IMG/VR virus record: IMGVR_UViG_2667527591_000022
DNA: 10,187 nucleotides
Strand: one strand, 5' to 3'
DNA from: a virus
Lineage: Monodnaviria > Loebvirae > Hofneiviricota > Faserviricetes > Tubulavirales
In this document: piece after piece, positions 7,438 through 7,751 of the stretch
Layout of the letters: each line of letters opens with the position of its first letter
How positions within the stretch are numbered: the first letter of the stretch is position 1
Position numbers and translations under genes: made by a program
Notes under the pieces: generated by a model
Database searches by the model: none
What the model saw: the letters and a program-made list of their open reading frames with translations, nothing else
Told to the model about the DNA's origin: nothing

Positions 7438-7562
7438 TGCGTGCAATTGTGCAAACTTGCAAAAATAATACACAAAAAAACCAGATGCACAAGTGCAATT
7501 GTGCACAAATGCAATTTTGCTATGTTGTATTAAACTAAGCCAAAAGAACAGGAGAACAAAAA
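7438..7562. promoter_or_regulatory. Divergent promoter/operator region between Rep and the regulator, with direct repeats of GTGCAATTGTGCA
   Basis: gtgcaattgtgcaa at 7441-7454 and gtgcaattgtgcac at 7493-7506 (52 bp apart), plus partial copies tgcaaaaa / tgcaatttt; candidate -35 TTGTGC and -10 TATGTT for the plus-strand regulator; AGGAG Shine-Dalgarno at 7550-7554. Confidence 0.45.
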
Positions 7563-7751
7563 ATGAGCAGGAAAAGTATTGGTATAAGCAACGAGAGATA
7601 TCTGAGAATAGAAAGAGCAGCCGTAGATATCACAGCCAAAACAGGAAAAGTCACAAAATGGTCGGAGATCGTGAATTATCTGATAGATGAATATTTAAAC
7701 GATGCAAAACAAGATATGATTTCGAAAAATGAAATTACACAAAAAAAATAG
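7563..7751 (+). CDS. Small DNA-binding regulator, probable ribbon-helix-helix (CopG/Arc/MetJ-like), 62 aa
   Basis: ATG with AGGAG 8 nt upstream; N-terminal beta-strand-like KSIGIS, then the RHH-typical segment GKVTKWSEIVNYLIDEYL; divergent from Rep, as for inovirus repressors. Confidence 0.55.
   Translation: MSRKSIGISNERYLRIERAAVDITAKTGKVTKWSEIVNYLIDEYLNDAKQDMISKNEITQKK

Follow-up and report, generated by a model that had tools for sequence, protein, structure and literature searches.

A putative RstR-like regulator and its TGCA-box arrays form an exchangeable cassette in a filamentous prophage of Escherichia coli

The viral record IMGVR_UViG_2667527591_000022, 10,187 nucleotides (nt) long and referred to here in its entirety as the window, is an integrated filamentous (inovirus) prophage of Escherichia coli. 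Our subject is the region between its gene for the replication endonuclease (Rep) and a divergent gene for a protein of 62 amino acids (aa). This region carries nine TGCA-type tetramers at intervals of 8 base pairs (bp), arranged in two arrays, and the arrays and the 62-aa gene are replaced together in related prophages. On comparison of the sequences, the small protein probably acts in immunity or copy control as an RstR-like repressor, specific to its allele, of both the rep promoter and its own promoter, with ParG-like boxes as its sites. The element adds an E. coli member, from a family newly assigned to a fold, to a known class, the inovirus immunity cassettes of rstR/ig-2 type. An initial annotation of the region had proposed a repressor and repeated operators, and missed the 8-bp architecture of tetramer boxes, the true start of Rep and the status of the region as one allele of an exchangeable immunity cassette.

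The repeats had first been described as a 13-mer occurring twice in direct orientation 52 bp apart, with partial copies. Two exact copies of GTGCAATTGTGCA are indeed present in the window (7441–7453 and 7493–7505, both + strand, offset 52 bp), and allowing up to three mismatches gives nine matches, seven of which lie inside 7441–7521; five of the seven looser matches fall at 7449–7521. The repeats are better described, however, as tetramers with a strict 8-bp period than as 13-mers. Read base by base, array 1 (7442–7461), on the Rep side, has TGCA at 7442, 7450 and 7458 with 4-bp AT-rich spacers. Array 2 (7486–7529) has TGCA at 7486, 7494, 7502 and 7510, followed by two degenerate boxes, TGCT at 7518 and TGTA at 7526, so that seven boxes of the two arrays are TGCA, which is palindromic. 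The first 13-mer spans boxes 1 and 2, and the second spans boxes 5 and 6. The spacers between boxes are ATTG, AACT, CAAG, ATTG, CAAA, ATTT and ATGT. The arrays contain five TGCA-N4-TGCA pairs, and the window has no others; when the intergenic region was shuffled 20,000 times with dinucleotides preserved, no shuffle held more than three. The autocorrelation at lag 8 was 0.51, compared with 0.24–0.33 at other lags, and none of 2000 shuffles reached this value. A terminator-like hairpin on the minus strand (7506–7485) was taken as a by-product of the palindromic boxes and an A/T tract.

The box layout is conserved. Across eight Enterobacterales loci, with 77–100% protein identity, the 3 + 6 arrangement is kept with an inter-array distance of 28–30 bp, and in their alignment the box columns are the best conserved, at 0.88 against 0.78 for the spacers, 0.71 between the arrays and 0.40–0.53 in the flanks. 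The lag-8 signal reaches significance in loci of E. coli and Photorhabdus and in Providencia-like ones. Conserved helical phasing of the two 13-mers, whose 52-bp offset had been noted as about five turns, was rejected: their spacing varies from 52 to 54 bp among the relatives, and thus phasing between the 13-mers is probably not the relevant feature.

Both arrays lie between the regulator gene and the Rep gene (5415–7415, minus strand), whose product is a P2 gpA-type protein (PF05840, Pfam E 8e-49; PHROG 91) annotated as Rep in RefSeq. The sequence places the Rep start at GTG 7415, giving a product of 666 aa as in the RefSeq annotation. A GGGGGG Shine–Dalgarno sequence at 7420–7425 precedes this codon, and a relative (locus L008) has ATG at the same codon with DNA upstream that is unrelated until the boxes begin. 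On these grounds a start at TTG 7514, which gives the longest open reading frame (ORF) and lies inside the repeats, was dropped. The repeats were said to overlap the Rep start region; since Rep begins at GTG 7415, they instead lie upstream of the coding start, in what would be the promoter and leader.

Tetramer boxes with regular 4-bp AT-rich spacers are also the layout of the operators of ParG of plasmid TP228, where variant ACTC tetramers are each bound by one dimer and coated cooperatively (PMC3130281). The likeness to the ParG sites OF and parH includes a ribbon-helix-helix (RHH) dimer, proposed in the case of the window, as the binding protein, the position of the operator upstream of the regulated genes, and weak sequence similarity in helix B of the window family. 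The ACTC boxes, unlike TGCA, are non-palindromic and number 8 + 12 rather than 3 + 6, and ParG has a long flexible N-terminal tail and serves partition with the ATPase ParF, whereas the window element belongs to a phage and has no ATPase. By this analogy the window element would be ParG-like at its operator, and is not a partition system.

A regulator family of predicted ribbon-helix-helix fold

The regulator gene (7563–7751, + strand) is preceded by an AGGAG Shine–Dalgarno sequence at 7550–7554, 8 nt ahead of its ATG. It is annotated in RefSeq as the coding sequence of a hypothetical protein (WP_032237689.1) and, as was first described, is transcribed away from Rep. The protein belongs to PHROG 2503, where its function is given as unknown, and close homologues occur in E. 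coli, Sodalis, Providencia, Photorhabdus and Proteus. An exhaustive profile search collected 73 cluster representatives, nearly all of 50–100 aa. Across 62 family members a consensus (ERKxKLERxAIE...KTG...KWTDxVNYLIDNY) is clear in the helices but lacking in the N-terminal strand region.

The RHH-like character originally ascribed to the protein gained support from structure prediction, mostly by way of a relative. The AlphaFold model of the monomer consists of coil (residues 1–9), a helix (10–27) and a second helix (33–61), with a predicted local distance difference test score (pLDDT) of 82. Fold searches with its helical hairpin were uninformative, and a phmmer search of the PDB with this one sequence yielded no useful match. 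The family also contains natural head-to-tail fusions of two units (P0085, P0087 and P0097), and the model of P0085 shows the beta-alpha-alpha order twice, with strands at 14–20 and 76–82 and helices at 21–38, 44–65, 83–100 and 106–128 (pLDDT 83, predicted template modelling score 0.74). Alignment of the family with the tandem-duplicated proteins by hhalign gave a probability of 98.4% (E 7.5e-15) and paired residues 2–55 of the window protein with the second unit of P0085, such that residues 3–9 (RKSIGIS) fall on the strand. Similarity to solved RHH proteins was found at the level of structure, the best match being TraY, with DndE, WYL1 and the archaeal-virus regulator AvtR also listed. At the level of sequence, the family profile gave weak RHH matches in the PDB to TTHA0139 (E 0.024) and ParG (1p94, E 0.12), Pfam ParG gave sub-threshold matches in 7 of 62 relatives, and no match to a curated RHH sequence family was significant. 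We conclude from these models that the regulator has an RHH fold, with a predicted strand at residues 3–9, helix A at 10–27 and helix B from 33, and that the family is a sequence-orphan branch of that fold.

Compared with the classical RHH repressors, helix A (18 residues) and helix B (∼25) of the window protein are longer, and P22 Arc and Mnt, pMV158 CopG, pSM19035 omega and E. coli MetJ have no detectable sequence relationship to it. The copG gene of pMV158 is co-transcribed with repB, whereas the window regulator is divergent from Rep. F-plasmid TraY, two RHH units fused into one protein, works at oriT together with a relaxase, whereas the window protein has one such unit and comes from a phage without conjugation genes; the UniRef name is almost certainly a mislabel.

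Homology gives the family a likely role. A tblastn search of phage genomes found relatives at 41–59% identity, some annotated as RstR (‘environmental RstR’, in CTXphi and pre-CTX records), some as ‘RstR-like’ (Vibrio anguillarum phages VAI1 and VAI2) and others as hypothetical (uncultured Dulem viruses, a human saliva inovirus and Vibrio cyclitrophicus phages). The window protein and the environmental protein (RstR-env) are 45% identical in pairwise comparison (E 2e-16), and the RstR-env representative, P0067, falls within the family with a profile E of 5.6e-8. The window protein is thereby directly homologous to the RstR of the short ‘environmental’ allele of the CTXphi/pre-CTXphi rstR–ig-2 module (GQ466611 IB1617, KR063268) and to the RstR-like proteins of VAI1/VAI2. 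Gene order agrees: taking one record per phage type, all homologues examined that have a complete neighbouring Rep gene are divergent from it across a gap of 130–195 bp, and this order is found in five annotated phage types (seven records) and in the E. coli prophages that carry a regulator allele. The repressor layout initially proposed for the region is therefore backed by homology to annotated RstR proteins of CTXphi, pre-CTX and VAI phages and by the divergent order in homologues.

Further likenesses to the CTXphi-type module are a repeat-rich intergenic region of 130–150 bp between the regulator and the replication gene, and membership of an allelic series whose regulators change along with their intergenic regions. 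The window differs in its host, E. coli, in a Rep of P2 gpA type rather than RstA type, and in its TGCA boxes at a strict 8 bp. It differs also in the regulator itself, since the experimentally studied RstR proteins of CTXphi (El Tor and classical) are HTH_3 proteins of ∼112 aa. The different Pfam family implies, without direct sequence comparison, that the fold of classical RstR is unrelated to that of the window family. With classical RstR an HTH_3 protein and RstR-env of RHH type, ‘RstR’ is a positional or functional label, spanning at least two unrelated folds, and not one protein family. We found no link between RstR and ribbon-helix-helix in the literature searched.

Another member of the family, MATPKRTTMAIVAERKLKLERLAIDASHTAGRAITWTDIVNHLIDNYAKDTEKDLIHTTKSSE, lies unannotated in the ‘major intergenic region’ of If1, a classical phage of E. 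coli (locus L025, 1974–2177; U02303, ∼5119–5322), where it adjoins IS200/IS605-like ORFs, including ‘ORF348’, and has no Rep gene beside it.

Joint exchange of boxes and regulator

The boxes belong with the regulator and not with the type of Rep, as sequence comparison among alleles supports. TGCA arrays accompany a gpA-type Rep in the window and in loci L008 and L041, and an RstA-type Rep in Photorhabdus (L002, L009 and L011). Conversely, E. coli prophages carrying CATG or GTTAA boxes have ∼90–95% DNA identity to the window over the matched backbone, which includes Rep (Rep was not compared separately). In the window and its relatives the strand RKSIGIS goes with TGCA boxes in the 3 + 6 arrangement with its 8-bp period. 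In E. coli TD225-C4 (L033) the strand is KSYNVPN, and three CATG boxes next to the Rep-side gene are followed by about seven CWWG-like boxes, again with an 8-bp period (reached in 5 of 2000 shuffles). In E. coli EC12, E300010, AST205 and 2015C-4136CT1 (frameshifted) the strand is KAIAITE and the boxes are GTTAA with an 8-bp period; this combination is found with a gpA-type Rep in L035, L037 and L040. The strand RGDTTVRINE, found in the second phage of E. coli E300010 and in V. cholerae rstR-env, goes with GCATGC/CGCAT motifs, and KNLGVPA, in Pasteurellaceae homologues, with GTGA/TCAC motifs. In all three phased E. coli alleles (TGCA, CATG and GTTAA) a three-box array adjoins the start of the Rep-side gene, and the strict 8-bp period holds for these three alleles but not for the family as a whole. 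Conservation across genera and covariation with the beta-strand, rather than with the type of Rep, thus favour the initial idea that the repeats are the regulator's putative operators.

The match ranges of relatives give the limits of the exchanged segment. Some E. coli relatives match the window only from 7441, the first box, on a different backbone, and others keep Rep and 7826–8100 without 7416–7825, and carry another allele there. These boundaries, 7441 and 7826, define a cassette of operators and regulator gene (7441–7825) that exists in at least four alleles in E. coli inoviruses, each with its own boxes. Regulator and intergenic target are passed on together, as an allele-specific unit that can be exchanged. 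The complete 7416–8100 module of the window was present in 3 of 5426 complete E. coli genomes.

A broader and more tentative reading, to which we give a little less than even weight, is that these cassettes form a portable ‘recognition-code’ series, in which the helices stay constant while strand residues and box are swapped together, giving mutually heteroimmune cassettes. The strand residues that face outward, at positions 5, 7 and 9, read S-G-S, S-N-P, A-A-T, T-R-N and N-G-P in the five alleles. As part of the same reading, such cassettes would move between inoviruses with unrelated Reps in Enterobacterales, Vibrionaceae and Pasteurellaceae.

Several individual loci have features of their own. 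In L033 an 82-aa ORF at 4547–4795 (MQIVYYDYFPGFG...) is similar to the N-terminal part of RstA-like Reps, and the gpA-type rep follows directly and overlaps it; this 82-codon RstA-like 5′ fragment looks like a recombination scar from the import of a regulatory cassette. Two family members lie in series in the E. coli prophages of L037 (7720–7902 and 7971–8186) and L038 (4349–4531 and 4600–4815), the first being of the KAIAITE type with GTTAA boxes and the second of the RGDTTVRINE type and lacking its own boxes. The RGDTTVRINE allele, with GCATGC/CGCAT boxes, is used in E300010 by an adjacent RstA-type phage (L037 10937–11152), and the second repressor may have been stacked for cross-immunity, silencing a competing co-resident phage. 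In E. coli 2015C-4136CT1 the unannotated KAIAITE regulator gene (L035 1296–1480) is broken by a stop or frameshift, reflecting either decay of the prophage or a sequencing error. In the sister prophages of L023 (10164–11129) and L036 (7690 onward) the RHH cassette is replaced, immediately upstream of rep, by a transposase gene of the IS110 family (RNA-guided), which may be an alternative module for integration or regulation.

Proposed repression and alternative readings

In the mechanism we propose, dimers would insert their paired N-terminal strands (residues 3–9, RKSIGIS) into the major groove at the palindromic TGCA, with one RHH dimer centred on each box. The natural head-to-tail fusions, the hypervariable strand and the palindromic boxes are indirectly in keeping with such strand pairing. 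With a box every 8 bp and 4 bp of AT-rich spacer between boxes, neighbouring dimers are proposed to bind cooperatively and so to coat each array, an arrangement similar to that of MetJ on its 8-bp metboxes. Occupancy of array 2 (7486–7529) would cover the back-to-back −35 regions of both divergent promoters, and occupancy of array 1 (7442–7461) the start and leader of the rep transcript. This would shut off rep and thereby the leftward phage genes downstream of it, and would also limit synthesis of the regulator itself by negative autoregulation. As the cassette is exchangeable with matched strand and boxes, immunity should be allele-specific, like that of the CTXphi rstR/ig-2 types.

The promoters in this scheme are candidates. 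On the rep side the only −10 of TAnnnT type is TATTAT (7465–7470, minus strand, read from 7470 to 7465), and at the matching position Photorhabdus has a hexamer of the same type, as has a Providencia-like viral contig, whereas other relatives are less clear. With a 16-nt spacer the candidate −35 would be TTGTGC (7487–7492, minus strand), a weak match inside array 2. For the regulator, alignment suggests a −10 at TAAACT (7531–7536, + strand), whose equivalents are TATAAT in Photorhabdus and TACAAT in Providencia-like loci. Given TATTAT as the −10, array 1 would lie over the predicted rep transcription start and leader, and array 2 over the −35 regions of both candidate promoters, abutting the regulator −10.

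Several observations weigh against this repressor model. All the promoter hexamers are weak, with 7–8 of 12 matches, and a consensus promoter scan with a threshold of 9 of 12 reported none in this interval, the rep −10 included. The 62-aa protein has no match in Pfam or NCBIfam, RHH models included, and its own N-terminus was modelled as coil, as expected for a monomer, so that its strand is assigned through the paralogue. Neither the Pasteurellaceae loci (GTGA/TCAC) nor the Vibrio rstR-env loci show a significant 8-bp period, and one dimer per 8 bp is therefore not a family-wide rule. As to induction, no LexA box was found in 7381–7600 and no antirepressor was identified. Results from Vibrio, on the other hand, favour the model: eight V. 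cholerae rstR alleles repress preferentially their own ig-2 promoter in lux reporters (PMC11509585), and three of the eight are short (180, 192 and 204 bp). One, rstR-6, may belong to the family, as judged by its primer-encoded ends, MKKKYTSLRV... and ...KTDLKR, which resemble those of family members; an exact search for the primers in viral contigs and a blastn search of phages both gave no match. Against the model, we found no direct functional test of rstR-env in the literature searched.

The arrays could also be bound by the regulator as an activator or as part of a two-way, Cro-like switch, for example turning rep on or repressing only its own promoter. The promoter positions are inferred, array 1 might lie upstream of the real rep start rather than over it, and some RHH proteins, AmrZ among them, are described as both activating and repressing (PMC3325190). 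We nevertheless regard this as unlikely: the homologues occupy the rstR position of CTXphi-type phages, every rstR allele in the reporter study acts as a repressor of its own ig-2 promoter (PMC11509585), and the two arrays flank the only plausible rep-side −10, which is a repressive geometry.

It is rather improbable that the protein is an autoregulated RHH antitoxin or accessory factor whose operators serve its own small operon, without control of Rep. There is no credible toxin gene; the partner genes vary between loci while the divergent Rep stays constant, and it is the start of the Rep-side gene that the three-box array adjoins in the TGCA, CATG and GTTAA alleles of E. coli. The downstream 56-aa ORF (7828–7998), considered as a toxin or partner, is unannotated in RefSeq and shows 12 amino-acid changes at ∼9% DNA divergence. 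Since its differences are mostly amino-acid-changing, it does not look protein-coding and is probably non-coding.

Repeats adjoining rep genes are typical of origins, and TraY, the best structural match, is an oriT accessory protein; the arrays might accordingly be read as replication-origin iterons or Rep sites, with the small protein as a TraY-like origin accessory. We consider this very improbable, as the boxes vary with the regulator and not with Rep: one type of array, TGCA, is found beside two unrelated Rep families, and closely related gpA-type Reps, judged by backbone DNA identity, occur with three box types that follow the regulator allele. Moreover, the stretch that is kept among heteroimmune variants is 7826–8100 and not the arrays. 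A ParG-type centromere, with the protein as partition adaptor for an episomal replicative form, is barely credible despite the parH/OF-like box architecture and the weak ParG matches in Pfam and to 1p94, as the phage unit has no gene for a ParA/ParF-type ATPase among its ORFs or annotations and the arrays are short and placed exactly on the divergent promoter region.

With the repressor reading, a fold, a target and a likely role are given to the PHROG 2503 family, which is ‘hypothetical’ in RefSeq and absent from Pfam and NCBIfam, and the family is tied to filamentous prophages of diarrhoeagenic E. coli as their predicted control. Among its relatives are rstR alleles found in present-day epidemic V. 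cholerae (RS1env-DRC; PMC11395875). The regulatory logic was already known; it is extended here to a new host and a new protein family, and nothing is overturned. The alleles, a small natural set of matched strands and boxes, could be used to study how RHH proteins select their binding sites, and to predict which inoviruses can share a cell.

Prophage context

Rep is the first gene of a leftward string. From 7415 the order is the gpA-type rep, a small protein of unknown function in the position of the single-stranded-DNA-binding gene, small coat-like proteins, a Gly/Ser-rich pIII-like protein and a Zot/pI homologue, and a secretin gene lies at 8151–9359. Among complete E. coli genomes, strain 100416 has the best match, a tandem prophage with the same genes, mostly annotated as hypothetical. 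No Rfam family was found anywhere in the window.

To the right of the regulator gene, the interval 7752–8150 contains a strong bidirectional terminator-like hairpin at ∼8033–8068 and a second hairpin at 7792–7807. The conserved stretch 7826–8100 is probably non-coding, and might be an origin or packaging signal.

At its left end the window begins with a 43-bp fragment (1–43) identical to P2-like phage terminase genes, and its right flank (10000–10187) is the core gene bssR; the prophage thus lies between a P2-like remnant and bssR, or else the junctions have been rearranged. Between the secretin and zot genes there is a 339-bp tandem repeat, seen in the window at 42–1367 (3.9 copies at 98% identity) and at 9373–∼10000 (about two copies), so that both prophage ends lie inside the array. 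It may hold the attachment site, or a packaging or origin element, and the 339-bp unit was found in 27 of 5426 complete E. coli genomes.

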